Assembly (NCBI GenBank): GCA_016839365.1
Contig: JAEOUH010000069.1
Location: 33,698-97,697, forward strand
DNA length: 64,000 nucleotides
DNA from: Candidatus Hermodarchaeota archaeon
GTDB lineage: Archaea > Asgardarchaeota > Hermodarchaeia > Hermodarchaeales > Hermodarchaeaceae
Direction of reading: 5' to 3'
The notes under the pieces were generated by a model. The model was not told where the DNA came from, did not search any database, and saw nothing but the letters and a program-made list of their open reading frames with translations. Below, piece by piece: positions 4,416 through 15,649 of this stretch (its first letter is position 1; each line of letters opens with the position of its first letter). Both the position numbers and the translations under genes were made by a program.

Positions 4416-5039
4416 ATGACCACCCACAATCAGCATTCCAAAGAAGAATCAACAGCTCCTACGGTCTTTCCTGTCTACGTCTTTGAGAGAACTAGCAAAT
4501 CAATCTTCAACTATTGTCTCAACAAAGCCACAGGGTCATCTCCGCGTGAAGCCCTGGGCGTCGTTCTGGGCTTTCGTCGACAATGGCAGGGAGAGAAGTA
4601 TATCCGTATCACCGATTGGGCCACCGGACACGTAGAAGCCAGTATTGCCCATGCCCGGTTCACTCCAGAAGGTATCCTCGAATATCGGCTTACCCTGCAC
4701 GATCGGTATGGCAATAATCCCCATTCTCCTCGCGTCGTCGGCCTCTGGCACTCCCATCCCTTTGGTGGCGATCCGCAGTTCTCCTCAACGGATTTACGTA
4801 CATTCTTCAACACGCCTTTCTGTGCTGAGGGCAACGTCTTCTTTTTGATTGATCCCCTCAGCCGGATCTTCAAAGTGTATATGCTTCGACCACGGCCCGA
4901 ACAGCCCGGCTTACAGCTAGAAAGGGTAGAATGGTGTACCTATCGTCCATCAGTCCCCGCTGGGGAACCAATGCTTCAGGATAACTCGCTAATCCATGAG
5001 GAGGAAATGCGTGATGACGAAGAAGCCCACACCGATTGA
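4416..5039 (+). CDS. JAB/MPN+ (JAMM) metalloprotease, putative Ubl-processing/deconjugating enzyme
   Basis: N-terminal catalytic Glu (PREALG) and a complete JAMM motif VGLWHSHP-x7-S-x2-D (HSHPFGGDPQFSSTD). Confidence 0.9.
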   Translation: MTTHNQHSKEESTAPTVFPVYVFERTSKSIFNYCLNKATGSSPREALGVVLGFRRQWQGEKYIRITDWATGHVEASIAHARFTPEGILEYRLTLHDRYGNNPHSPRVVGLWHSHPFGGDPQFSSTDLRTFFNTPFCAEGNVFFLIDPLSRIFKVYMLRPRPEQPGLQLERVEWCTYRPSVPAGEPMLQDNSLIHEEEMRDDEEAHTD

Positions 5040-5877
5040 TTTAGAGTATTTTGAGAAGGATCAGCATGATCGAACACGACGCTGGTTGGGGGCTACCAAT
5101 CTTGAGGCCGTTCGTCAGTCAACGGTACTGATGGTGGGCGCAGGGGCAGTCGGGAATGAGGTCTGTAAGAATCTCGGCTTGTTAGGGGTTGGGAAAATCG
5201 TTTTGGTGGATCCCGATAAAGTGGCCGCCTCCAATTTGAACCGCTGTGTTTTCTTTCGTCCAGGAGACCACGATATTAAGTTCAAAGTCGATGCAGTGGC
5301 TGAGCGGCTCCCTGAACTCGCAACCGATACAGTGGTTGAACCACATGCCATACCGATACAGGTTGCACCGGACGAAGTGTGGGATGTTGACTTAGTGTTG
5401 GTCGGTGTTGACAACCATTATGCCCGCTACCTGCTGAATGCTAAAAATCTCAGCATCGAGCCACCCTTGCCAGTGATAAATGGGGCTATGGGAAAGGACT
5501 TCGTGTCAGTTGAAGTCCTCGCGCCACCAAAGACAGCGTGCTTGGTGTGTTCGTGGAGTAAAGACTTCGTCGATCATGTCATCACCAACGAAGTACGCAC
5601 ACGATGTGATCCTTTCTTTGTTGACACTATGCCCCGATTTCCCATGATTAGTTTTGTTACCTCCGTTGTGGGCGCAGTGATGGCGTGGGAAGCCACAAAG
5701 ATGCTTGCTGGATTACAGCAGTGGCGTCTAACGGGGCAATGGCAGGAGGGGCTCAAACCAGCACTTGGCCGGTTCATCCAATACGACTTACACAAGCATA
5801 AATCCATGACAGGACCAATTATGGCAAATCCACGGTGTACAGAAATTTTCTGTCGCGATAAGCGGAAACATCTCTAA
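5014..5877 (+). CDS. ThiF/UBA-family E1-like Ubl-activating enzyme
   Basis: GAGAVGNE nucleotide loop, DPDKVAASNLNR, VDN, Zn ligands CLVC and C-x4-C, candidate catalytic Cys in RTRC. SD GAGGAGG precedes ATG 5014; overlaps the JAB gene. Confidence 0.9.
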   Translation: MTKKPTPIDLEYFEKDQHDRTRRWLGATNLEAVRQSTVLMVGAGAVGNEVCKNLGLLGVGKIVLVDPDKVAASNLNRCVFFRPGDHDIKFKVDAVAERLPELATDTVVEPHAIPIQVAPDEVWDVDLVLVGVDNHYARYLLNAKNLSIEPPLPVINGAMGKDFVSVEVLAPPKTACLVCSWSKDFVDHVITNEVRTRCDPFFVDTMPRFPMISFVTSVVGAVMAWEATKMLAGLQQWRLTGQWQEGLKPALGRFIQYDLHKHKSMTGPIMANPRCTEIFCRDKRKHL

Positions 5878-5881
5878 CCCG

Positions 5882-7483
5882 TTAGATTAAACCAATGGTC
5901 TTCTGCCAGACCGTTGAAGTCGGTTTCTGATCAGCCCACAAGCGTAGGTTCAGAGTTACTTTGGGGGCTCCATTTGGCATAGGGAGGTTCATCCAAATAT
6001 TCACAGGGGAATCTAATCGAGGTGCGAAGGGTTCAATAGCCACTACCTGGTCCATAAGGCCGTCTGAAACGGTTGCTGTCATCACCATTTGGTCTAACGG
6101 ATGGGCACTGCTTGGTTTTGGAATCAATGAGACCTTCAAGGGCAACGTACTCCCACGTGGGACAGCATCAGGGGCGTTAACCTCTAATTCTGCGGGGGCT
6201 TCTCTCAACCGGGCGGGAACCGATTCGGGGACACCCACCACTCGTTTTACTTTCCACCCGGTCTCAATCTTGGGCTCAGAACGCTCTCCCTTTTTTCCAT
6301 CAATGGCAACAGTATCAGAGTACCAACTGACTTTGAATTCTTGGCGGACGCGAGTATCCATCCAGTTTCCGATGATAAGGGGAATATGACGGTTTGTCAC
6401 TCCTAACAATCCCATGGCCCCATGCCAGGTCGGATCAACAGGGATCCATTGACCCCGAATCCAAATTTCACTCCAAGCATGACGCTCCCAGGACTGCCCA
6501 TTATAAGCATAACCCGCTTCCAATCGGGCTGGTATTTTGTTCGCGCGACACAACGCCGCAAATAAAGCGGCATATTCAGTGCAATCACCAACCTGCTTTT
6601 CGATAGCATAAGCTGCTCCTCTTTCATACTCTTGACGAACATACCGCATCTTCTTTGTAACTGCCCTCATCGCTGCTTGTGCAAATTGTATCGGTGTTGA
6701 ATGATCTTTAGCAATATCTCGGGCAAGATCTTTGATGAGGTGGTGGTGTGATTCTATGAAATTTTCTGGTTGGGTGAACTTAACGATATTGGATGGAAAG
6801 GCTGAGTTGCGAGTTTCTGGCGGAATATTATACCGTAGTGCGCGATTCCGAATGAGAGCTGTGTACCCACAGGTAAAGGCTTCTCCAACAGCAAGACTAG
6901 CTTGATGAAATCGTATCCATTGATTTCCGATTGTATCATTCTGTTGTTGTCCATCCTTCGGAGAGAACTGGATATCAAGTACCGTTTGCCGAGGAGGCAG
7001 CGAAGGCGGAGCAGCTATTATAACTCGAACATTGCTGATTCGAGCACGTGTAATGTTCTTCACAGTCGCTGAATAATTGACCCTGTGCACTACAATTGGT
7101 GGATGTCCTCCTTCAAAGCGAAAGCATCCCATGACATAATGATCGTCGGGAGGTCCTCGATAGGGATACTTATCGATTGCGGCTTTGATGCGGGTTTCCT
7201 GCAATGCAACAACGATTGTATAGAATCCAGACAGCAGATTTGCCGTCAGTGGCACACTAAATTCACCTGTATTAGTCTTACCAAAATGAAACGGGACCTT
7301 ACTCACCATTCGCCCGAAGGGATCAATGATGTAGACGATCCCATTGTCAACCTTTACATTCGATTTTGCTTGACCCTTTCGTTTCAACTGAATAGAAATC
7401 CGTTGACCGGCTTTAACACTCGGAACACCATCTTGCCTCGTAGGGGCGATAATTTTCAAAGACACGGGAAGATTACTCGTCAT
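5882..7483 (-). CDS. Transglutaminase-like (Cys-His-Asp) domain protein with flanking beta-rich domains
   Basis: GDCTEYAALFAALCRANKIPAR...HAWSEIW...W.PVDPTW gives an intact triad; no obvious signal peptide; overlaps the upstream Zn-finger gene. Confidence 0.85.
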   Translation of the reverse strand: MTSNLPVSLKIIAPTRQDGVPSVKAGQRISIQLKRKGQAKSNVKVDNGIVYIIDPFGRMVSKVPFHFGKTNTGEFSVPLTANLLSGFYTIVVALQETRIKAAIDKYPYRGPPDDHYVMGCFRFEGGHPPIVVHRVNYSATVKNITRARISNVRVIIAAPPSLPPRQTVLDIQFSPKDGQQQNDTIGNQWIRFHQASLAVGEAFTCGYTALIRNRALRYNIPPETRNSAFPSNIVKFTQPENFIESHHHLIKDLARDIAKDHSTPIQFAQAAMRAVTKKMRYVRQEYERGAAYAIEKQVGDCTEYAALFAALCRANKIPARLEAGYAYNGQSWERHAWSEIWIRGQWIPVDPTWHGAMGLLGVTNRHIPLIIGNWMDTRVRQEFKVSWYSDTVAIDGKKGERSEPKIETGWKVKRVVGVPESVPARLREAPAELEVNAPDAVPRGSTLPLKVSLIPKPSSAHPLDQMVMTATVSDGLMDQVVAIEPFAPRLDSPVNIWMNLPMPNGAPKVTLNLRLWADQKPTSTVWQKTIGLI

Positions 7484-7868
7484 TATCTCGACCTACTTGG
7501 TCGGCTTCAGAGCGGGATTCGATTCCTTCTTCTTCTGGAAGAATAACTACTTTTCCACCCAGTGGTTGAGGTGAGCGTCGGGGGACATCGCCCAATATTC
7601 TCACAGATGTTCGTATCTCCGTAGGTTGGCTTCCTAAATCCAATCGGGGACCCAAAAACCGAGTAAAGTGTGGAGAGTGGGCTTCACCGCCACGAACGAT
7701 TGCTCCGGGACAGGTGCCTTGCCCTGATTCTAAGAAGAGGGCACGACACGAAGGACAAATATAGCTACCACAGACTGTACAAATCCACCATTGGCTCCGT
7801 GCATTTTCAAGTGAAACTTGAGTGGCACAAGCCGCACACCGCATTTGGGATGCACCATGTATACTCAT
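7473..7868 (-). CDS. RING/PHD-like Zn-finger protein (candidate E3) with disordered acidic tail
   Basis: C-x2-C-x15-C-x2-C-x4-C-x2-C-x11-CP-x9-H; ATGA overlap with the upstream gene. Confidence 0.7.
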   Translation of the reverse strand: MSIHGASQMRCAACATQVSLENARSQWWICTVCGSYICPSCRALFLESGQGTCPGAIVRGGEAHSPHFTRFLGPRLDLGSQPTEIRTSVRILGDVPRRSPQPLGGKVVILPEEEGIESRSEADQVGRDNDE

Positions 7869-8083
7869 GATGGTCTCTCCTTAAGCTCACGTCGTTTCTT
7901 TTTACCATGAATTCTAATGGAATAATAAGGCGAAAAGTTGGGAGGTCGTTCTTCTTCAAAAGGGATGTCTCTCTCTCGGAGAATCTGAATCCGGGTTTCC
8001 CTCTCAGATTCATTCGTTGATTTTTCAGGTTCTTCCTCATACTCGTCGGGGCTTTCTTTCTCCTCTGAAGGTGGATCCGACAT
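7865..8083 (-). CDS. Small disordered protein (acidic N-terminus, basic C-terminus) in the Ubl operon
   Basis: SD GAGGTG upstream of ATG 8083; fills the gap between the E2 and Zn-finger genes with translational coupling. Confidence 0.65.
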   Translation of the reverse strand: MSDPPSEEKESPDEYEEEPEKSTNESERETRIQILRERDIPFEEERPPNFSPYYSIRIHGKKKRRELKERPS

Positions 8084-8097
8084 AATTGACACCTCGT

Positions 8098-8850
8098 TTA
8101 TCTCTCATCATCAAGAATCCGAACCGATGTACGTCTACTTGGTTTATCCAAAACGCGGGGCGCCCTTCGAACAGATTCCGCGCTTGATGATGAGGACTCA
8201 AGTATGCGTACACGTCCCTGCCGTGAAGCCGCAGCTGGCCCATCCTTGTGCTGGGCTTCCCAGAGCTGATCAAGGGTTTCAACGATTCTGTCTGCATCTT
8301 GCTCATACCATGCCATAGCCGCCATATTTAGACCATGATCGGATTGAAACTGAGATGGTGGTTCTACTCGGTCTGGTTTTAACAATACAAAAAAGGGGAG
8401 ATCTTCAAGGATACGATCTAATTCTCCACGAACCGAGTAGCAGGCATGTCCAGTCCCGCTCGCCGCCAGTCTGGGGTGATACAGGGGCGTTTCTGCTACA
8501 GGTCGAATGGCGCCTATGTTCTGAGGGTACTCTCGGGGCAAATCAAAGATGAATCGATGCTCATAACGTATGGCGCTTGTATCCTCAAGGTTTCTGGGTT
8601 TACGAACGAAGCCGGGGAGATTACGCATAGTAAAGCGAATCCGTTTAAAAGCTCCATCGCGATATCGGGCGATGGTGGAAACGGTGAAATCGCGATTGCT
8701 CCAAGCTGTGTCTTCGCGGTGCGGAGGATCTGGATCCCACCCTCGTCGTCCAAAGAGATTGTTCATAGTGTCAAAAAATGTCTGAATCTGGGTTTCCACT
8801 CTGGCGTTAAACAGCTCAGTAGAGAATACTGGTCGGGTCACGATTATCAC
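8098..8850 (-). CDS. UBC-fold E2-like Ubl-conjugating enzyme
   Basis: FIFDLPREYP...TPLYHPRL-x5-GHAC matches the E2 pattern FPxxYP...TxIxHPN-x-GxIC, with the Cys conserved; LNMAAMAWYEQD matches the E2 LNxxAAxxY helix. Confidence 0.8.
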   Translation of the reverse strand: MIIVTRPVFSTELFNARVETQIQTFFDTMNNLFGRRGWDPDPPHREDTAWSNRDFTVSTIARYRDGAFKRIRFTMRNLPGFVRKPRNLEDTSAIRYEHRFIFDLPREYPQNIGAIRPVAETPLYHPRLAASGTGHACYSVRGELDRILEDLPFFVLLKPDRVEPPSQFQSDHGLNMAAMAWYEQDADRIVETLDQLWEAQHKDGPAAASRQGRVRILESSSSSAESVRRAPRVLDKPSRRTSVRILDDER

Positions 8851-8894
8851 CCTCAGTTCCTGTATTCGTCTCGGGTGTGTGAAGATTTTTTTTG

Positions 8895-9215
8895 TTATTG
8901 TCCGACTTCAGGGACTACATCGAGGAGGAAGAATTCATCATCGGTGATTTTTGGTTCTAGCTCCCCGAAGGTTATACCTGGACTTAGCCGGGTGGGTTCA
9001 GGGGCTTTACGGATGAGCACAAATTCTGCACGCTGGTCCCCGATTTTCGCTTTAGCCCAATCGTCAATACTGACGCCCTCATCACGGGCCTGGGTGACAA
9101 GAGTGCGGATGACTTCATCGACACGGGTATCTTCATCAATGCCGATTCGGAATTCCTTTTGACGGGGCTCAACATCGACGATGATTGAGCGCCAAAATCC
9201 TTCATCTTTACTCAA
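8895..9215 (-). CDS. Ubiquitin-like (beta-grasp) protein ending ...VPEVG-Q
   Basis: 106 aa; strand-strand-helix (DTRVDEVIRTLV), then strands, TFGEL (like the Ub TLxD motif), a final strand FLLDV and a near-terminal Gly. SD AGGTGA before TTG; first gene of the E2 operon. Confidence 0.75.
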   Translation of the reverse strand: MSKDEGFWRSIIVDVEPRQKEFRIGIDEDTRVDEVIRTLVTQARDEGVSIDDWAKAKIGDQRAEFVLIRKAPEPTRLSPGITFGELEPKITDDEFFLLDVVPEVGQ

Positions 9216-9457: not shown

Positions 9458-12352
9458 ATGACCACTAGGCACAAGCCATCCTTATCAACTTCACCAATCG
9501 TGTTTCGTAGTATCCGTCTAGTGAACTTTGTCATTCACCGTGATACCACAATCCAACTCGATCAATCCCCTGTCATTCTTATTACAGGCTCCAATGGAAG
9601 CGGAAAAACCTTGATTCTCGACGCCCTGTTGCTCGCAATTGGCGTTGAATCTCGAAGAGCCCAACGTCAACGCAATTCGGCTTTCATCGGTCGATTCGAG
9701 AAATATGCTGAAGTCATTCTAGAACTTAACAACTACCAACTCAATGGGCGACGAGTCTTAAGAAGCCCCGATCCTACCATGTCTGCGCTTCTTGATAAGG
9801 ACGTTGTGTCGATCCGGCTACGAGTCGATGAAACAAACCGAATATCCTATTGGTTGAATGAAAAACGATCAGTGAATGGCCATCAGATTGCTCGTAAAGA
9901 TATTCGGAAACTCTTCCAAGCTGCTGGACTCTTTGGAGATTCTCCCTTAGCTGTTACTGAGGCTGAGACTTTAGACCACTTTGCCTCCCAATCTCCACGA
10001 CGAAAGTTCGAGACTCTCCTGAACGAAACTGGGCTCCGTAATTGGATGGAAAAACTCGAGGAAGCCCGTCTCCTCGTATTACAGGCAAGAGCCAATGTCA
10101 AGCCCCTCGAATACCGGATCCGCCATGAAGAACAGCGCCTCCAGGTTCTGAAGGCAGCCTATGAAGCTTTTCAACAAAAACAGCAGCTCCAACAGAGACA
10201 GAAGGATCTCGACGTTGAAGCGGCCTGGGCTGAAGTGGCTTATCGTGAGGAGCTTGCTAGCCAACTCCAATCACAAGTTACCAGTCTGGAAACCCAACTC
10301 TCCGACCAAAATGAGAAATTGGACAAGTTAGACCAAAGGAAAACCAGCTTGAAAGAGAAGTGCGAAGCGATTGAAGCAAAACGGGAAAAGCTCCTAACAA
10401 CCATGGACTCGCTACACGATGAGCGGTTGCAAGCACAAGGCCATCGGCGAGGGCTAGAGAATGAACTCAAAGGCATGCTAAATCGAACAGAACGATATAC
10501 CAAGCGTCGGAAGCCCGCAACAGGCAAAATTGACGCCATTCAGAAGGAGTTAGCAACGATTATCCAGGATCGAGATGGCATCGATGATCAACTCGCTCAG
10601 GTCCGACAAGATATTGCCTCAACGGAAGAGTACCTCTTTACCAAACCCCAACGGTATCCACATTTTGAAGAGACAATACTTCGGGGCTGCCTCCGATACC
10701 GGTCTGAACTTGATAAACTCGCACTCTCTGATGCAGTGATTGGGCCCCTTTTTGCGCTCATTCGTATGAAACCGGAGTATGCACAGTACGAAACCGCGGT
10801 CAAACTGGCCTTGGGACGCTACTCCTATGCATTCATTGCTCTGAATCGAGAGGTCTTCGTTGAGGCTAAAAACTTGTATGATCATCTCTGGCCACATGAA
10901 AAGCCAGATCTGGTGGTCGCCCGGACAAATCCCACGACCGCGATAACGCGAGATCGCCCAACGGTTTCTTTACCCGTGATTGGTTGGGCAGCTGATCTCA
11001 TTGAAGGGGATATATATGCCATTAGTTTCCTAAGCCGTGTCATAAACACAGCTATCGCGGAGGAAGGAGCCGATCCCAACACGCTAGTCGATGCCTCTCA
11101 ACAACTCAATTGCAACATCATTACTAGTGAAGGAACAAGTCATTATCTCCGAATCGGCGCCTTTGCCCGACCACCCCGACCCGTTACGGTAAGTTTGGAT
11201 GTCTCTCTCAACGATTTGGGACTAGCCCAGGATGGCGCTGATACACGCATTCAACTCCGTGAACTTCGTGAACAAGAAGCTAAACTGATGCGAGACCGAA
11301 TGCGCATCAATTCTGAAATAAGTCAACTTCGGGCAACCCTCCAAGACCTTCAGCAAGTGCACATATCTCATCTTTCTGATGGGGAAAGAACAGCCCTGGT
11401 CACTAGTTCTGAACATCGAGTCGCTGAATTACAACAACTGATTCTTGAACTGGAAACTGAATGCGACAGGCTTAGCCAAGATTATCAGGAATATAACTTA
11501 GAATTATCACCGATCCATTCCCGACAGCAAAAACTATCCGAACAACTCCAAAACCTTGACCTTCGACGATCACGCCGTCAGGTTGAAATCAACCACCTCG
11601 TTGCAGAGCTCAAGCAACGCGAAGATGAATATGAGCATCTCATTAAACAAACCAAACATTTCCGTAAGGCTGCCACAGCACTGGGAGAACGCCCTCAGGC
11701 TGTTCGAAACCCTACTGCGATTCGTGATGAACAAATCCAAATCCAGGCGATGATTGATACTATCACCGCCACAGCAGACGATCGGCAAGCCTTTGAAGAC
11801 CAGGAACAAGTCGTCTCCCAACTCCAAGACTACCTCAAACAACGTCAGCTCCACTTAGAAAATCTGATGACGGACGTTGATCGAAGACTTCTCGAGTGGA
11901 GACGGCAACTCCAAGAGACGGTTGAAATCCTCAACCACCGTATGAACCAATTACTCAGCCACTTCCTCAAGCAAGTCAAACTGCTTATTCGATTCCCCGA
12001 TGAACCCAGTCGTGCGGAGCTCCACCTTCAACTTGCCATTAACCGCAAAGGCGACTGGCGGACCTATCAAGAAATGTCTGGGGGCGAACGGGTCCTAGCC
12101 ACCCAGACTTTCATTTTAGCCCTACACACTCTCGCCAAGAGTCCCCTCCATGTGATTGATGAATTTACCCAACGCCTCGATGAAGCAAGCCGTGCAGCTA
12201 TTCTCAGTGTTGTTCAACGCGCCCTCGATTTAACCCAAAAAGACTCACTAATTCATCCACAGTTTCTTCTAATGGCTCCCTCCACGGTCGGACTCGAGAT
12301 CCCAGAGACTATGCACCACGTCGTGCTGATCAAAGGACAGGTGAAAGTCTAA
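9458..12352 (+). CDS. SMC-family ATPase of the SMC5/6-related type
   Basis: IRLVNF..H, Walker A GSNGSGKT, two long coiled coils around a hinge (VIGPL...AVKLALG..AFI), signature MSGGER, Walker B/D-loop VIDEFTQRLD, and His-less switch QFLLMAP as in SMC5/6 QF/YxxxTP. Confidence 0.9.
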   Translation: MTTRHKPSLSTSPIVFRSIRLVNFVIHRDTTIQLDQSPVILITGSNGSGKTLILDALLLAIGVESRRAQRQRNSAFIGRFEKYAEVILELNNYQLNGRRVLRSPDPTMSALLDKDVVSIRLRVDETNRISYWLNEKRSVNGHQIARKDIRKLFQAAGLFGDSPLAVTEAETLDHFASQSPRRKFETLLNETGLRNWMEKLEEARLLVLQARANVKPLEYRIRHEEQRLQVLKAAYEAFQQKQQLQQRQKDLDVEAAWAEVAYREELASQLQSQVTSLETQLSDQNEKLDKLDQRKTSLKEKCEAIEAKREKLLTTMDSLHDERLQAQGHRRGLENELKGMLNRTERYTKRRKPATGKIDAIQKELATIIQDRDGIDDQLAQVRQDIASTEEYLFTKPQRYPHFEETILRGCLRYRSELDKLALSDAVIGPLFALIRMKPEYAQYETAVKLALGRYSYAFIALNREVFVEAKNLYDHLWPHEKPDLVVARTNPTTAITRDRPTVSLPVIGWAADLIEGDIYAISFLSRVINTAIAEEGADPNTLVDASQQLNCNIITSEGTSHYLRIGAFARPPRPVTVSLDVSLNDLGLAQDGADTRIQLRELREQEAKLMRDRMRINSEISQLRATLQDLQQVHISHLSDGERTALVTSSEHRVAELQQLILELETECDRLSQDYQEYNLELSPIHSRQQKLSEQLQNLDLRRSRRQVEINHLVAELKQREDEYEHLIKQTKHFRKAATALGERPQAVRNPTAIRDEQIQIQAMIDTITATADDRQAFEDQEQVVSQLQDYLKQRQLHLENLMTDVDRRLLEWRRQLQETVEILNHRMNQLLSHFLKQVKLLIRFPDEPSRAELHLQLAINRKGDWRTYQEMSGGERVLATQTFILALHTLAKSPLHVIDEFTQRLDEASRAAILSVVQRALDLTQKDSLIHPQFLLMAPSTVGLEIPETMHHVVLIKGQVKV

Positions 12353-13143
12353 TGATAACTAATGATACTTCTACATTTCTCCGTGCCTTTCCGCGCCGCA
12401 AGGCCTGGTATGACACTTTCCAATACAACTACAAGCGAACACGACTATCATCTTTTGGAACCAAAGGGATAGTAATTACGCTATGGAATCTGACCAAAAA
12501 GTATGAGGTTGCCCTAAAACAGCACGATACGTTCCCGATTAAGGAAGCGGAGATTGACCGTGAAGAAGTTGCCGATGCATACCGCGTCCTTGATACCCCC
12601 TGGGAACGAACTCTCGATGGGCGTTTCTACTATAATCTCGCTTCAATGCAACATCACCGGGATTCTCAATTGGCTGCTCCTGAAATCGCTCCCGAGGAAT
12701 GGATTTCCCAATTTGCCAATGAGGTCAAACGACGCGCGACTCCGGTACTCTTTTTAATTAATCAAGAGCGGACCATCCCACCTTTCCAATTGCCTCCTGC
12801 TGATTCGCCGGTCGCAATGGACGATGCCCCTACCCAAGATGATAAACAGGCTATGCGCAAACACCGTATCTCTTATGAAGAGATCTCCATAGACGCTCTC
12901 GGCGCTAGAAGGGCGGATATCCTGAAACGGCTACAAGGCAAACGATACAACTATGCAGCCCTATCCGAAATCCTAACCAACTGGGAACTCGATTTACTCA
13001 GCCAGATGATTCGGGATAACATCTGTCCTGCAACGTTCGAAAAAACGGCTATCATTTTTCGACACCCTCCACCTAAAACAAATCCTGCTTTCACTGCTGT
13101 TGCCATTACCGCACAAAACCATGAGGAGGTTCCTCGAAAGTGA
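12352..13143 (+). CDS. Hypothetical protein coupled to SMC; candidate kleisin (Nse4/ScpA-like)
   Basis: TAATG overlap with the SMC gene; helical N-part, Pro/acidic linker and C-terminal helical domain. The kleisin call is mainly positional. Confidence 0.45.
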   Translation: MITNDTSTFLRAFPRRKAWYDTFQYNYKRTRLSSFGTKGIVITLWNLTKKYEVALKQHDTFPIKEAEIDREEVADAYRVLDTPWERTLDGRFYYNLASMQHHRDSQLAAPEIAPEEWISQFANEVKRRATPVLFLINQERTIPPFQLPPADSPVAMDDAPTQDDKQAMRKHRISYEEISIDALGARRADILKRLQGKRYNYAALSEILTNWELDLLSQMIRDNICPATFEKTAIIFRHPPPKTNPAFTAVAITAQNHEEVPRK

Positions 13144-13787
13144 CCTCAGATCCAATACCTACTGACACCATCTCTTCCACAAGCGAGGATTCAGAAGAAG
13201 AGGTGTTAGAGCAACGTCATCTCATTGGTCAGCTCTTTGCCGCCCTCACAGCAAGGTTTCGGAATGAGGAAGGCCAACTCAGCATCGGGGTCAAACGGCA
13301 AGATCTTTTAGAAGCCCTTCATATCAATAAGACTGGCTTAGTCCGCCTCCTCGATTTACTCCGCCAGCAAATATCTCCCCTGGGGCTAGAATTGGTTGAA
13401 TATCGAATGGGACGGGACACGCTCTATTGTGTTCGAACCATTTACGGAGTTCCTGGCGAGCTCACTGATCCTGAATACGCCGTATTAGGAGTCATCATTT
13501 CCACTGTAGAACAGGTGAGTAAACTCCATCGTCCACGCCGGGTGGCCACAAAAGACATCGAAACAATCCTTGTAGCCCGTGGGCGCCTCTCCCGCTACCA
13601 ACTCGATCGTATTTTACGACGACTAACCGAGCTAGGCTATATTACGCGAACCGCACGACGAATTACTTACGGTCCACGACTCGAATTGGAATTTGATGCT
13701 GAACGCCGTGAAGCCATCGCCAGCGCAGCAACCCTGTATCTCGCAGGGGCTACAGCTGATTCGGAGGAAGACCTGAATGAAACTTGA
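13140..13787 (+). CDS. Tandem winged-helix KITE protein (Nse1/Nse3-MAGE/ScpB-like)
   Basis: LRQQISPLGLELVEY...LY, LTDPEYAVLGVII and LDRILRRLTELGYI...ITYGPRLELEF resemble Nse1/Nse3 WH-A and WH-B, including the terminal GPRxxxE; GTGA overlap with the upstream gene. Confidence 0.75.
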   Translation: MTSDPIPTDTISSTSEDSEEEVLEQRHLIGQLFAALTARFRNEEGQLSIGVKRQDLLEALHINKTGLVRLLDLLRQQISPLGLELVEYRMGRDTLYCVRTIYGVPGELTDPEYAVLGVIISTVEQVSKLHRPRRVATKDIETILVARGRLSRYQLDRILRRLTELGYITRTARRITYGPRLELEFDAERREAIASAATLYLAGATADSEEDLNET

Positions 13788-14238
13788 TCTCTCCACCGTT
13801 GGCATCAGTTGTGTAGCCTGTGGAACCCGAATCACACTTGAGGAGGCAATCCAGAAGGAATGGCACCAATGTTTACGGTGTCAGTTCTTCATTGATCCCC
13901 ATTGTCTTGGAATTGTCCAAAACACCATGGGTGGGGTCTGCCCCTCATTTAGCCAAGGAGTGACCCGTCATTCCTTGCAAGCTGCTGATATTCCTACAGA
14001 ACAGATCCTCATATTCGTCAAAGATCAATATCAGAAAGGTCACGGAGGTGCTCTCATCGACTCCTTATTTTATACCAGACCTTCAGCTTTAAAGAAACCA
14101 CAACACCCAAGTCAAATGGAATCGAACTCTGAAGAACCTCTCACCCGAGAAGAAATCTGGCAACGCTTTGGACTCGTTTTAGTGCAGCGGTCCCAAGGTA
14201 AATGGAAAACTTGGGAAAAAGTTGGCAGTACTAGCTGA
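13777..14238 (+). CDS. Nse1-RING-like Zn-finger protein, paralog of 7473-7868
   Basis: C-x2-C-x16-C-x2-C-x4-D-x2-C-x11-CP-x8-H; overlaps the end of the KITE gene by 11 nt. Confidence 0.7.
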   Translation: MKLDLSTVGISCVACGTRITLEEAIQKEWHQCLRCQFFIDPHCLGIVQNTMGGVCPSFSQGVTRHSLQAADIPTEQILIFVKDQYQKGHGGALIDSLFYTRPSALKKPQHPSQMESNSEEPLTREEIWQRFGLVLVQRSQGKWKTWEKVGSTS

Positions 14239-14240
14239 TA

Positions 14241-14672
14241 TTGTCCAAGGGACATAAACTATTTACCTATCAACCACTCATGCCTTCCTATACGAATTGG
14301 CTTGCATCATTTTTGGAGTTGATGGGTTTGGGTGACGAAAAGGCTCCCAGTTGGGTAAAACACGCCGTTCGGCGTTGGAAGCAATTCTATAATGAAATTC
14401 AGTTCATCGATGGACAAATTGATACTGCAAATCCGTTGAGTGTAATTTTCCGAAATGAAGCTCTCTTAAATCAAGTAGTATCCCAATCACAGGCTGTCAC
14501 CTCACCCATTGAACCAACCCTTTCAAAGAAAGAAGAATCAGCTCCATCTCAACCTGAAAAGACTCCTTCGCCAAATCCCGAAAAAAAGCAGCGCAAAGGA
14601 TGGTTCATTTCTAAACTCAAAGACCTCCAATACCTATTCAATCGCCCTCTTTGGTCCTGGGATTCTTTCTAG
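14241..14672 (+). CDS. Hypothetical protein, last gene of the SMC operon
   Basis: 2-nt gap after the Zn-finger gene; Pro/Ser/Glu linker and Trp-rich C-terminal tail. Confidence 0.55.
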   Translation: MSKGHKLFTYQPLMPSYTNWLASFLELMGLGDEKAPSWVKHAVRRWKQFYNEIQFIDGQIDTANPLSVIFRNEALLNQVVSQSQAVTSPIEPTLSKKEESAPSQPEKTPSPNPEKKQRKGWFISKLKDLQYLFNRPLWSWDSF

Positions 14673-15649
14673 ATGGGATCATCCAAACCCATTTTGGAAC
14701 GAATCTTCTCGATGACATCTTCTCCCATCCGCTTCGTTTCTGCTGACTCCGTCGTAGGCTCATCCTGCACATCCTCAGACAGTTGAGGGAGACCCGCTAG
14801 TTTTCTCACGATACCAGAAATTGCATGCTTTGCCACAGAAACCTCAGAACCGCCAGAGAGTAGCACCACCAACCGTCCCTCACAGACTTCTTCCGCTGCC
14901 TGCATCAAAATATCTGTCATTGCAGGAAAGGCACGCAACGAAAGATTAAACCCACCATAGTCTAGGGCATGGGCATCATGACCCATGTTCCACAAGATCA
15001 TCTCAGGGCGAATCCGCCTGGCCCAAGGCAGCGCTAAACGACGTACGGCTTCGACAAAGGAGTCATCACTACTCGAACTTGGGAAAGGGACATCCACATG
15101 CCGATGTGTCACCGTATCCAGGCTTTCCCGGAAACTCGCCTCGAAGTTTAAATGGTATACTCCTTCATCATCCCCAAGGACATCACGAGTTCCATCCCCT
15201 GGATGAGGATCCGTATCAACAATGAAAAAACGATTAACTCCATGCATATGTTGCAAATTTCGAACAAGTAAAGCAGAGTTGTTGTAATAGCAAAAACCCC
15301 AGGATGAACCACGACTAGCGTGGTGCCCAGCACAGCCAGTAAAGGCAAAAGCATTGGCTGCCTCGCCAATCCAAACCGCCTCACCTGCTCTTACCGCGGA
15401 TCCCCCCGACACGAGTGAAGCAGAATCATATCCTGATCTTCTAACATGTTGAATGTGATCAGGGGTGTGCACCTGCAGGAGTAAATCCTCACCTACTCTG
15501 GGCGCTTCTTCCAAAATAACCTGAGTAGTCTCCAATGTTCCCGAATCGCGTAAATAGTCAAGTGCCGGTTGTACACGACCAGCTAGCACCGGGTACCCTT
15601 CAACTGCCATTAAAGGATGGTAGAGTACGAGTGTTGGCTTCTTTTTCAT
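14669..15649 (-). CDS. Histone deacetylase/AcuC-family protein
   Basis: GHHA, GFCYYNN, DTDPHPGDGT and GHDAHALD; LSGGS where the family usually has LEGGY. Confidence 0.9.
   Translation of the reverse strand: MKKKPTLVLYHPLMAVEGYPVLAGRVQPALDYLRDSGTLETTQVILEEAPRVGEDLLLQVHTPDHIQHVRRSGYDSASLVSGGSAVRAGEAVWIGEAANAFAFTGCAGHHASRGSSWGFCYYNNSALLVRNLQHMHGVNRFFIVDTDPHPGDGTRDVLGDDEGVYHLNFEASFRESLDTVTHRHVDVPFPSSSSDDSFVEAVRRLALPWARRIRPEMILWNMGHDAHALDYGGFNLSLRAFPAMTDILMQAAEEVCEGRLVVLLSGGSEVSVAKHAISGIVRKLAGLPQLSEDVQDEPTTESAETKRMGEDVIEKIRSKMGLDDPI

Follow-up and report, generated by a model that had tools for sequence, protein, structure and literature searches.

To our knowledge, SMC5/6 stands alone among eukaryotic SMC complexes in carrying its own ubiquitin and SUMO ligases. 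Its SUMO E3, Nse2/Mms21, is bound to the Smc5 arm. MAGE-RING ligase pairs, such as MAGE-G1 with NSE1, were reportedly described by Doyle et al. in 2010. In these pairs, a kite protein of the MAGE/Nse3 type is bound to a separately encoded RING E3 (PDB 5hvq, 5wy5). Small RING proteins also occur in prokaryotic ubiquitin-like operons (Caldiarchaeum, Asgard archaea), together with ubiquitin, E1, E2 and an Rpn11-like JAB protein.

SMC5/6-related operons have been described in TACK and Asgard archaea, where they encode an SMC protein, an Nse4-related kleisin and a kite related to Nse1 and Nse3 (10.1101/2024.01.07.573240; PMC8665677). The row given for the Hermodarchaeum genome contains one ScpB-like and one Nse1/3-related kite (10.1101/2024.01.07.573240). 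The RING is stated to be absent from archaeal kites and no zinc-finger gene is reported; the Nse1 RING is treated in the literature as a eukaryotic addition without equivalent in the archaeal kite (10.1101/2024.01.07.573240; PMC8665677). In Nse1 itself, the variant RING (vRING) is of the C4HC3 type and contributes to the structure of the Nse1/3/4 trimer (PMC8750328).

The operon analyzed here lies in a 64,000-nt stretch of Hermodarchaeota DNA, hereafter the window. A sequence-only reading of the window had proposed that a kite gene and the RING-like gene overlapping its end represent Nse1 in its state before fusion. The operon resembles the published ones in gene order, in existing alongside the canonical SMC-ScpAB as a second SMC set, and in its kite complement, the one Nse1/3-related kite listed for Hermodarchaeum matching the single non-ScpB kite found here. 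It differs from them in having a finger gene as a fixed fourth member and in being linked to a putative ubiquitin-like (Ubl) conjugation cassette. Moreover, the published kleisin is Nse4-related, whereas ORF263, which occupies the kleisin position here, is too divergent for recognition.

Results

The operon and its trailing ORF comprise the following features, numbered from the first letter of the window.

9458..12352, + strand: 964-aa divergent SMC ATPase that opens the operon (Pfam SMC_N, 3.2e-22)
12352..13143, + strand: ORF263, putative kleisin, assigned by position and size only
13140..13787, + strand: kite subunit, 215 aa, N-terminal helix plus two winged-helix domains
13777..14238, + strand: finger gene ORF153, 153 aa, ATG start
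13777..13971, + strand: predicted N-terminal binuclear cross-brace zinc finger of ORF153, residues 1-65, from homologue alignments and the ligand table
13972..14238, + strand: C-terminal domain of ORF153, residues 66-153, from conserved alignment blocks
14241..14672, + strand: ORF143, variable trailing ORF outside the core, no family match

This is a second SMC operon besides the canonical SMC-ScpAB, and in the Hermod and Heimdall groups the finger gene always lies directly after the kite gene. The order SMC, ORF263, kite, finger is fixed in 14 long loci from non-Hermod families and in 16 loci from the genome collection. SMC heads the operon in the former (one being cut off by a contig end) and in 15 of the latter, and an ORF of 210-300 aa separates SMC from the kite in 13 and in all 16, respectively. 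The SMC protein matches NCBIfam SMC_prok_A at 2.8e-35, well below that model's cut-off, and its best PDB sequence matches are Pyrococcus Smc (3.9e-14), Smc3 (1.7e-10) and Smc6 (7.7e-9). This ranking does not demonstrably place the protein in the SMC5/6 type. ORF263 is a putative kleisin by position and size; its family alignment gave no Pfam match, no significant PDB sequence match and no detectable kleisin similarity. ORF143 was detected in 7 of 15 Hermod-type loci and in no other family, and flanking synteny is conserved in that an HDAC-family gene follows in 15/15 Hermod-type genomes.

At the locus itself, the kite ORF begins with a GTG that overlaps the upstream stop as GTGA, and ORF coordinates confirm the claimed overlap with the finger gene: exactly 11 nt, in different frames. 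Kite and finger are separate ORFs in all 56 loci collected (Hermodarchaeia, Heimdallarchaeia, Asgardarchaeum). Their junctions vary: some overlap by 1, 4, 11 or 13 nt, others abut (0 nt) or are spaced by 20-38 nt. Typically, the finger start and the kite stop share a few bases, ATGA being the commonest form. Every finger ORF has its own start codon, and none of the ORFs in these loci matches both the kite and the finger profile. The sequence-only reading was right that gene order follows Nse1 domain order (kite, then finger), which holds throughout the 56 loci. As to natural fusions, which it had suggested seeking in relatives, none was found in these loci, among 1.84 billion representative proteins or in any genome set searched.

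The finger was found in 70 of 400 Asgard genomes and the gene pair in 62-70 of the 400. Coverage is dense in certain groups: Hermod (finger 18/18, kite 15/18 genomes), Heimdallarchaeaceae (28/31 for both) and family f12 (11/12 and 10/12). Where near-universal, the system is single-copy within whole families; it was not found in most of the Asgard families searched. Members of the finger family include proteins named from LC_3 and Hodarchaeales (Heimdallarchaeia). The LC_3 homologue sits on a 1.5-kb metagenome contig, where the upstream ORF ends in a kite-like manner (...ELMIEFTDEAREQ...), a suggestive, non-significant resemblance. In Heimdall families lacking the system, two other second SMC-like loci were inspected, and neither has an adjoining finger gene: one is a HerA/nuclease/Rad50-like cluster, and the other consists of a 409-aa ORF, a distant kite and an SMC-like gene.

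The AF2 model of the kite (pLDDT 80.5) consists of two helix-plus-hairpin winged-helix units. In Foldseek searches it matched ScpB, Nse3, Nse1, MAGE, JetB and MukE at 1.6e-4 to 7.5e-3 (probability 0.96-1.00). Matches to the kite family by VIA had Z scores of 9.2-10.9 and spanned 143-160 residues. The best at full length was Nse1 7dg2_A (Z 10.9 over 159 aa; the Nse1 reference structures were PDB 7dg2, 5hvq and 7tve), with further Nse1 chains at Z 10.1 and 10.0, ScpB 3w6j_F at 9.4 and JetB at 9.2; Nse1, ScpB and JetB are thus less than 2 Z apart. The model and these matches bear out the claim of tandem winged helices, and the 215-aa protein is predicted to have the fold that defines the kite superfamily (ScpB, MukE, JetB, Nse1, Nse3/MAGE). 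The further claim of an Nse1-type kite held for the fold, Nse1 being the top full-length match, but not for the SMC_Nse1 profile (PF07574), which had no match at E<=10 across the source genome and nothing over cut-off in 121 Asgard genomes. A Pfam scan of the kite protein yielded no SMC_Nse1, MAGE or ScpB and only a weak MarR_2 match. Run over the genome, Pfam MAGE had no match, and since the control was likewise matchless this absence carries no information. The kite family profile found nothing significant among PDB sequences; a search with a diverse kite profile returned no Nse1, MAGE or ScpB proteins among 8000 candidates scored and, within a range of 102-457 aa, no kite relative longer than 243 aa. 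Leads from the ESM Atlas were MAGE (0.81) and DUF4194 (0.80). YGPRLELEF is indeed there, but at residues 177-185, some 30 residues short of the C-terminus, and not at the very end as had been read; its Y177, G178 and R180 are invariant among 29 homologues.

The source genome has two kites only, this one and the canonical ScpB. The sole match to SMC_ScpB (PF04079) lies on another contig, beside a canonical 1195-aa SMC, and is not recovered by the kite family profile even at E<=10. By profile and by location, identity of the 215-aa kite with ScpB is ruled out.

In ORF153, the spacing read from the sequence is correct: C12-x2-C15-x16-C32-x2-C35-x4-D40-x2-C43-x11-C55-P56, with H65 in addition. Across homologues at 20-80% identity, all eight ligand positions are conserved or replaced by other metal ligands. 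Position 40 is Cys in 27 of 30 other homologues; at position 15, 11 of 31 have Asp, His, Asn or Gly; and all nine sequences without H65 carry a Cys at C55+5. In two homologues (P0106 and P0109), positions 12, 15, 40 and 43 are lost together while 32, 35 and 55 are retained. From this correlated loss and swapping of ligands, two interleaved zinc sites are predicted (pairs 1+3 and 2+4: C12, C15, D40, C43 as site 1 and C32, C35, C55, H65 as site 2), in the cross-brace topology of RING and PHD fingers. The eight conserved or swapped positions, the recurrence of the gene pair and the confirmed kite fold place the pair and its ligand pattern far beyond chance.

The finger is best read, from sequence, as a two-zinc cross-brace domain of the RING or PHD class, its matches to RINGs all being below significance. 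Confidence in the ORF153 model is low: pLDDT averages 52 overall and reaches some 70-76 in the finger. VIA matches of the finger, at Z <=5.6 with a model of pLDDT ~70, are nearly all to RING, U-box, SP-RING or ZZ domains. A U-box leads (Z 5.6), the SP-RING of Nse2/Mms21 appears at Z 4.8, 4.5 and 4.0, and the Nse1 RING ranks 38th and 48th (Z 4.0 and 3.8). Foldseek found nothing at E<=0.001, the best match being 2yu4 (Nse2/Mms21 SP-RING, E 0.36). The finger family profile had no significant match among PDB sequences, and a finger-only profile gave RNF4, Hakai, FYVE and TRIM21, all sub-threshold, with Nse1 absent from its best 60 PDB matches. No Pfam RING model was over cut-off among family members (best zf-RING_UBOX, 1.9e-4, sub-cut-off in some members). 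Zf-RING-like (PF08746) is absent from the Pfam families listed for the 27 or 31 members scanned, and over the source genome it hit three other loci and not ORF153. The ESM Atlas lead was Prok-RING_1 (0.75). Taken together, the zf-RING-like result, the rank of the Nse1 RING and the PDB profile spoke against the specific tie to the Nse1 RING that had been claimed.

The best Pfam match of ORF153 is C1_1, at 16.9 bits against a cut-off of 26.5, and only 2 of 31 diverse members match it. C1 domains follow the pattern H-x12-C-x2-C...C-x2-C-x4-H-x2-C-x7-C. A C1 domain is ruled out here by the score below the gathering threshold and by the missing leading His and C-x7-C end.

Beyond the finger, ORF153 has a C-terminal domain (pLDDT <50, this part of the model being unreliable) with nearly invariant F98 and W128 and the consensus EE-x-W...VKR-x-RGKF-x-TWE. 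The family counts 39 cluster representatives among the 1.84 billion representative proteins, with lengths of 89-192 aa except for one 397-aa protein with an N-terminal finger. Homologues of 101-103 aa begin at Met51.

In Hermod genomes, a putative Ubl conjugation cassette lies upstream of the SMC operon and is divergent from it.

4416..9215, mixed strands: the whole putative cassette (Pfam for JAB, E1 and the transglutaminase-like protein; motif or synteny for the others)
4416-5039, + strand: JAB (Pfam Prok-JAB, 1.3e-8)
4996-5877, + strand: E1 (Pfam ThiF, 1.5e-34)
5882-7483, - strand: transglutaminase-like protein (Pfam Transglut_core, 4e-24)
7473..7868, - strand: RING2, 131 aa, finger paralogue (BLASTP 4e-8 vs ORF153)
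8098-8850, - strand: E2-like protein (YP...HPR-x9-C motif resembling the UBC hallmark)
8895-9215, - strand: putative Ubl (synteny)

Neither Pfam nor PDB searches matched the E2-like ORF, and the putative Ubl has no family match. RING2 is recovered by the ORF153 family profile at 3.4e-11 (hmmsearch) and shares all eight ligand positions, the one at 40 being Cys; by sequence comparison it is the sole paralogue of the ORF153 finger. In families f2 and f12, JAB and E1 follow the finger gene. They do so directly and co-directionally at loci L049 and L074, and at L051, in one of the two families, they are joined there by homologues of the Ubl and E2-like genes.

Discussion

We propose that ORF153 is the fourth gene of a second SMC5/6-like operon in Hermodarchaeia, several Heimdallarchaeia families and Asgardarchaeum, and that it acts as an E3-like adaptor, a proposal whose chances we put at about even. 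The usual overlap between the finger gene and the kite stop codon suggests that the two proteins may be produced together and work as partners. One could envision residues 1-65 forming a RING/PHD-class finger, with two zincs in a cross-brace, that would bring a charged E2 to the SMC complex or its substrates on DNA, with the C-terminal domain probably docking on the kite or the kleisin. An E3-like adaptor seems the most likely job because the finger has a single paralogue, the finger protein of the neighboring cassette. The resemblance of this mode of action to that of Nse1 and of MAGE-RING pairs is best read as a functional analogy, common ancestry being unproven.

With MAGE-RING pairs, the Asgard pair would share a kite-fold and a RING-class protein as separate polypeptides presumed to act jointly; the former are eukaryotic, not operon-encoded and mostly outside SMC complexes, whereas the Asgard pair is encoded in an operon. 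The RINGs of prokaryotic ubiquitin-like operons are likewise small cross-brace finger proteins encoded with E1, E2-like and JAB proteins. Unlike them, ORF153 lies inside an SMC operon, has an added C-terminal domain and uses the ligands C4-[C/D]-C2-H in place of C3H2C3 or C3HC4, with no Pfam RING over cut-off. Nse2/Mms21 offers the parallel of an E3-type finger on the SMC5/6 complex in a separate polypeptide, the matches to it being within noise. SP-RINGs keep only zinc site 2, as do two ORF153 homologues; ORF153 itself has both predicted sites, and no Nse2-like N-terminal arm-binding helices.

The likeness to Nse1 inspired the idea that kite and finger are its unfused direct ancestors, joined by loss of a stop codon at eukaryogenesis, with duplication of the kite giving Nse1 and Nse3. 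In both, the order from N to C is a tandem winged-helix kite, then a two-zinc cross-brace finger (predicted here); both belong to an SMC/kleisin/kite set (the kleisin being putative here), and both are linked to a ubiquitin-like conjugation pathway. The Asgard genes abut or overlap, the kite's best full-length fold matches are the three Nse1 chains, the family is present in Heimdallarchaeia, and an adjoining RING gene would fill a gap, archaeal kites being regarded as RING-less. The Nse1-like ligand spacing that had been claimed applies to ligands 1-6, C-x2-C...C-x2-C-x4-X-x2-C as in C4HC3 fingers, where X is His in Nse1 and Asp or Cys in the Asgard finger. That spacing, however, is also common to PHD and C1 fingers, C1_1 being the best Pfam match, and the claim fails at the last pair, which is C-x9-H or C-x4-C and not the C-x2-C of Nse1. 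Neither zf-RING-like nor SMC_Nse1 matched, the Nse1 RING came no higher than 38th among fold matches and was missing from the best 60 PDB profile matches, and the fold scores of the kite hardly separate Nse1 from ScpB and JetB. Nse1 is a single fused protein, while the Asgard genes are two and were never found fused. The conserved C-terminal domain of about 85 aa has no counterpart or place in Nse1. Nse1 pairs with Nse3, whereas the Asgard operon has a single kite gene and no Nse3 partner, so that its kite is presumably a homodimer; and most Asgard families searched lack the system. We therefore consider a true split Nse1 quite unlikely. Decidedly improbable, too, is the reading in which the finger protein is the direct ancestor of the Nse1 variant RING, still encoded separately from its kite in Hermod and Heimdall archaea, and the linked E1, E2, Ubl and JAB prefigure the ubiquitin and SUMO ligase activities of SMC5/6. 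An E3-armed SMC complex would in that case predate eukaryotes and not be a "eukaryotic innovation".

It is also worth considering that the finger is a purely structural zinc module that stabilizes the kite-kleisin or binds DNA with no ligase role, the Ubl linkage reflecting regulation of the complex as a substrate. The vRING of Nse1 is itself structural in the Nse1/3/4 trimer (PMC8750328). Of 31 homologues, 11 lack Cys at position 15 and two have lost site 1 completely, suggesting that the canonical E2 surface is dispensable, and the cassette already has a dedicated finger in RING2. Yet the ORF153 finger is paralogous to that very finger, JAB and E1 directly follow the finger gene in two families (with Ubl and E2-like genes too in one), and the fold neighbors are overwhelmingly E3 ligase domains; we regard the structural role as unlikely. 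We consider a role as accessory to mobile defense very improbable; SMC-like ATPase and Ubl module would then form a Wadjet-, Lamassu- or Bil-type island against viruses or plasmids, with no connection to chromosome maintenance or to SMC5/6 ancestry. In its favor, eukaryotic SMC5/6 and Wadjet alike restrict extrachromosomal DNA, JetB is among the fold matches of the kite, the system is patchily spread over the phylum, and PADLOC gave partial matches of SMC to LmuB (1.8e-21) and JetC, generic SMC-head matches only. Against this stand the near-universal, single-copy presence in whole families and the conserved flanking synteny of Hermod-type genomes, which is unusual for mobile defense islands; kite, finger, ORF263, E2-like and Ubl had no PADLOC match, and the core has no nuclease or other effector gene. 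Finally, overlapping ORFs in different frames are what a frameshift in a metagenome-assembled genome would leave of a single Nse1-like gene. The two-gene arrangement is, however, conserved across the 56 loci, from independent assemblies that include the closed 3.08-Mb genome of Heimdallarchaeum aukensis and a second single-contig genome, with junctions that differ, a start codon for each finger ORF and no ORF matched by both profiles. This refutes the artefact and leaves it practically no chance.

Returning to the E3-like adaptor, the finger family is a new small zinc-finger family with a clear partner. In some of the archaea nearest to eukaryotes, an SMC5/6-like kite comes with a dedicated protein of apparent RING class, and the whole operon is linked to a putative Ubl conjugation cascade. 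No matter whether descent or convergence lies behind it, the locus would offer a simple four-subunit system in which to test how E3 activity on SMC complexes arose and what it is for.

The operon and its neighbours

ORF calling in the window gives five tightly packed genes, all on the plus strand:

9458-12352, +, SMC protein, 964 aa
12352-13143, +, ORF263, putative kleisin by position and size
13140-13787, +, kite (tandem winged-helix protein), 215 aa, GTG start
13777-14238, +, zinc-finger protein ORF153 ("finger"), 153 aa, ATG start
14241-14672, +, ORF143, adjoining the finger gene on its 3' side

The kite GTG start shares the sequence GTGA with the upstream stop codon, and the finger ATG lies 11 nt ahead of the kite stop. 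The coordinates bear out the 11-nt overlap between a winged-helix gene and a finger gene described in the sequence-only reading, and the cysteine pattern ascribed to the finger is present in ORF153; the motif YGPRLELEF does occur in the kite, at residues 177-185 rather than at the extreme C-terminus as had been stated. ORF143, found in 7 of 15 Hermod-type loci and in none of the other families examined, had no family match in profile searches and could be either recently arisen or spurious. A Hist_deacetyl gene (14669-15649, minus strand; Pfam 1.1e-43) converges on the 3' end of the operon. All 15 Hermod-type loci have the operon core and an HDAC-family gene in this same position.

An ancient, stable gene pair

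Close homologues are named from Promethearchaeota and Hermodarchaeota metagenome-assembled genomes; among the more distant finger-family members are proteins of Heimdallarchaeota LC_3 and of a Hodarchaeales MAG. A survey of 400 Asgard genomes with profiles of the two families detected the finger in 70 genomes and the kite in 62, distributed over the same families.

Finger and kite in Asgard families (genomes with the gene/genomes in the family)
f1 (Hermod, the source genome's own): finger 18/18, kite 15/18
f7 (Heimdallarchaeaceae, with the closed genome of Heimdallarchaeum aukensis among its members): finger 28/31, kite 28/31
f12: finger 11/12, kite 10/12
f2 (Asgardarchaeum abyssi): finger 1/1, kite 1/1
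f6: finger 1/1, kite 1/1
f8: finger 3/3, kite 3/3
f11: finger 2/2, kite 2/2
f29: finger 1/1, kite 1/1
f20 (largest family): finger 1/135 (one weak partial match), kite 0/135

Fourteen long loci representing eight genera all share the order SMC, ORF263, kite, finger, ORF263 going undetected at one of them, on a truncated contig. Kite and finger are separate genes at all 56 loci, where no ORF matches both profiles. Their junctions differ: a 4-nt overlap in 22 loci, overlaps of 1, 11 or 13 nt elsewhere, and gaps of 0 or 20-38 nt where there is no overlap (twelve larger apparent overlaps reflect the ORF caller picking an upstream start). The uniform two-gene state excludes a frameshift artefact, a possibility that the sequence-only reading had wished to see checked along with the existence of natural fusions in relatives. 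No fusion was found at the 56 loci, among 1.84 billion representative proteins scanned in full with HMMER (39 finger-family members, 89-192 aa bar one), or in a search for kite relatives across 102-457 aa (8000 candidates scored), which gave none longer than 243 aa. Judged from these gene sequences, the split is ancient and stable. The sole long finger-family member, P0114 (397 aa, on a 4.9-kb NCBI contig), carries its finger at the N-terminus (residues 13-83), followed by 314 more residues that appear helical and coiled-coil-like by eye.

The kite protein

The AlphaFold model of the 215-aa protein, built with 29 homologues as input (pLDDT 80.5), shows two winged-helix units preceded by an N-terminal helix. 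Its Foldseek matches are archaeal ScpB, Nse3, Nse1, MAGE proteins, JetB and MukE (E 1.6e-4 to 7.5e-3), and by its predicted fold the protein is a kite. VIA re-alignment puts the Nse1 chain 7dg2_A on top (Z 10.9, 159 residues, rmsd 3.9), with further Nse1 chains (7tve_C, Z 10.1; 5hvq_C, Z 10.0) and, close behind, ScpB (3w6j_F, 9.4; 6juv_B, 9.3) and JetB (9.2), gaps too small for the kite subfamily to be assigned by fold. There was no Pfam match to SMC_Nse1, MAGE or ScpB and no match of the family profile to PDB sequences, and a diverse kite profile, with 8000 candidates scored, recovered only members of its own family.

Profile searches of the source assembly (2.2 Mb, 93 contigs, 84% complete) found one other kite, a canonical ScpB on another contig that adjoins a canonical SMC of 1195 aa. 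A third SMC-like gene, adjoining an ORF of Mre11 size, is probably Rad50. SMC/kleisin/kite operons "related to SMC5/6" have been described in TACK and Asgard archaea, and a Hermodarchaeum genome is listed there with one ScpB-like and one Nse1/3-related kite (10.1101/2024.01.07.573240). Since the other kite of our genome is ScpB, the window kite is probably the Nse1/3-related one, by elimination rather than sequence comparison.

The finger: zinc sites and affinities

The pattern in ORF153 is C12-x2-C15-x16-C32-x2-C35-x4-D40-x2-C43-x11-C55-P, then H65, and the eight ligand positions are kept in alignments of 27 close and 30 more distant homologues. In the finger-only alignment C12, C32, C35, C43, C55 and H65 are invariant and C40 nearly so, Asp40 of the Hermod proteins being Cys in 27 of 30 other homologues. 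Position 15 is mostly Cys; 11 of 31 homologues have His, Asp, Asn or Gly there. Sequences that lack H65 carry a Cys five residues past C55 (9/9), and two homologues have jointly lost positions 12, 15, 40 and 43 while retaining 32, 35 and 55. This joint loss and swapping points to two interleaved sites, {12, 15, 40, 43} and {32, 35, 55, 65}, which from the ligand pattern form a cross-brace arrangement as in RING, PHD and FYVE fingers. Across the family alignment the eighth ligand is either a His 8-10 residues past C55 (CP[SG]...H) or a Cys at +5 (C[LVP]S..C), mutually exclusive options that divide the family into two subgroups. Several entries (P0073-P0079, 101-103 aa) that open with the conserved Met51, and thus miss ligands 1-6, are probably gene-calling artefacts. 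Residues 66-153 of ORF153 are a second conserved region, to which Nse1 has no counterpart.

The spacing of ligands 1-6 is typical of C4HC3 fingers, the class of the Nse1 vRING (PMC8750328), and is also found in PHD and C1 fingers. The AlphaFold model of ORF153 is poor overall (pLDDT 52; about 70-76 across residues 11-50) and gave nothing significant in Foldseek, the best match being the Nse2 SP-RING (E 0.36). The exhaustive VIA list consists almost entirely of E3-type domains: the Prp19 U-box leads (Z 5.6), TRAF6, RNF4, APC11, Ring1b, Rbx2, Slx1, Nse2 (Z 4.8) and ZZ domains are included, and the Nse1 RING ranks no higher than 38th and 48th (2ct0, Z 4.0; 7dg2_A, Z 3.8). Sub-threshold Pfam matches were to C1_1 in close members and to B-box, zf-RING_4, FYVE, zf-RING_UBOX and zf-C3HC4 in distant ones; zf-RING-like was missing from the match lists of the members scanned. 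The finger-only profile matched RNF4 (0.0098), Hakai, FYVE domains and TRIM21 among PDB sequences, and Nse1 was not among the matches. By these comparisons the finger is of the RING class, with no specific tie to Nse1.

A genome search with zf-RING-like, the Nse1-type RING model, matched three other loci and not ORF153. The best match (21.4 bits, against a cut-off of 26.6) is a stand-alone 55-aa protein (L001:1483-1650, plus strand; about 3617-3784 of contig C61 in the source genome) with the textbook C4HC3 pattern C-x2-C-x9-C-x2-C-x4-H-x2-C-x8-C-x2-C, adjoining a permease-like gene and away from all SMC genes.

A linked putative Ubl-conjugation cassette

In Hermod genomes a putative Ubl-conjugation cassette (4416-9215 in the window) lies upstream of the SMC operon and divergent from it. 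Pfam matches identify a Prok-JAB protein (1.3e-8), a ThiF-type E1 (1.5e-34) and a transglutaminase-like protein (4e-24); a 250-aa E2-like ORF, without a match in family searches, carries a YP...HPR-x9-C motif resembling the UBC hallmark. The genome's one paralogue of ORF153, the finger protein RING2 (131 aa; 7473-7868, minus strand; BLASTP 4e-8, hmmsearch 3.4e-11), is also encoded in the cassette. The Hermod-type order is transglutaminase, RING2, E2-like and putative Ubl on one strand, SMC, ORF263, kite and finger on the other, then the HDAC-family gene; putative Ubl, E2-like and RING2 occur in all 12 such loci with enough upstream sequence. In Asgardarchaeum, JAB and E1 are immediately 3' of the finger gene, and in f12 the finger gene is followed by JAB, E1, putative Ubl and E2-like homologues in one co-directional array. 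In Heimdallarchaeaceae a transglutaminase-like gene is about 7 kb away.

Ancestry and possible role

The sequence-only reading took the two genes for a split Nse1, in its state before fusion. As an argument from layout this is now much stronger because the pair is conserved across classes, including Heimdallarchaeia; the proposed homology of the finger to the Nse1 RING fared less well, as all tests able to single out that RING (fold, Pfam, PDB profile) failed to do so. Signal is often lost in such short, divergent domains. The Nse1 RING has been viewed as a eukaryotic innovation missing from archaeal kites, and in the supplement of that work no zinc-finger or RING gene is mentioned beside these kites (10.1101/2024.01.07.573240). 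We found no description of the kite-finger pairing in the literature searched.

SMC operons of this kind might also be read as mobile defence islands. PADLOC, however, gives generic SMC-head matches only, and within families the system is near-universal and syntenic, which favours a housekeeping-type module instead. Another SMC-like cluster (L092:10787-16908, minus strand) comes from a genome whose Heimdall-class family lacks the finger system. Its gene order is a 409-aa ORF, a 182-aa distant relative of kites (aligned to the kite family by hhalign with probability 72% and E 3.4e-5), a 927-aa SMC-like ATPase and a 405-aa protein that PADLOC matches weakly to PDC-M34B and to a Macro-domain model of ThsA. 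No finger gene accompanies these four, and PADLOC made no Wadjet assignment.

The pairing of the two genes, the topology of the zinc sites, the RING2 paralogy and the genomic linkage suggest a working model. The C-terminal domain of ORF153 would dock on the kite-kleisin module, binding the kite or ORF263, if the latter is indeed a kleisin; the docked protein, presumably zinc-bearing and active as an E3, would offer its RING-class finger to the linked cascade's E2. Nse1 and MAGE-RING ligases work on this principle, with a docked finger serving an E2.
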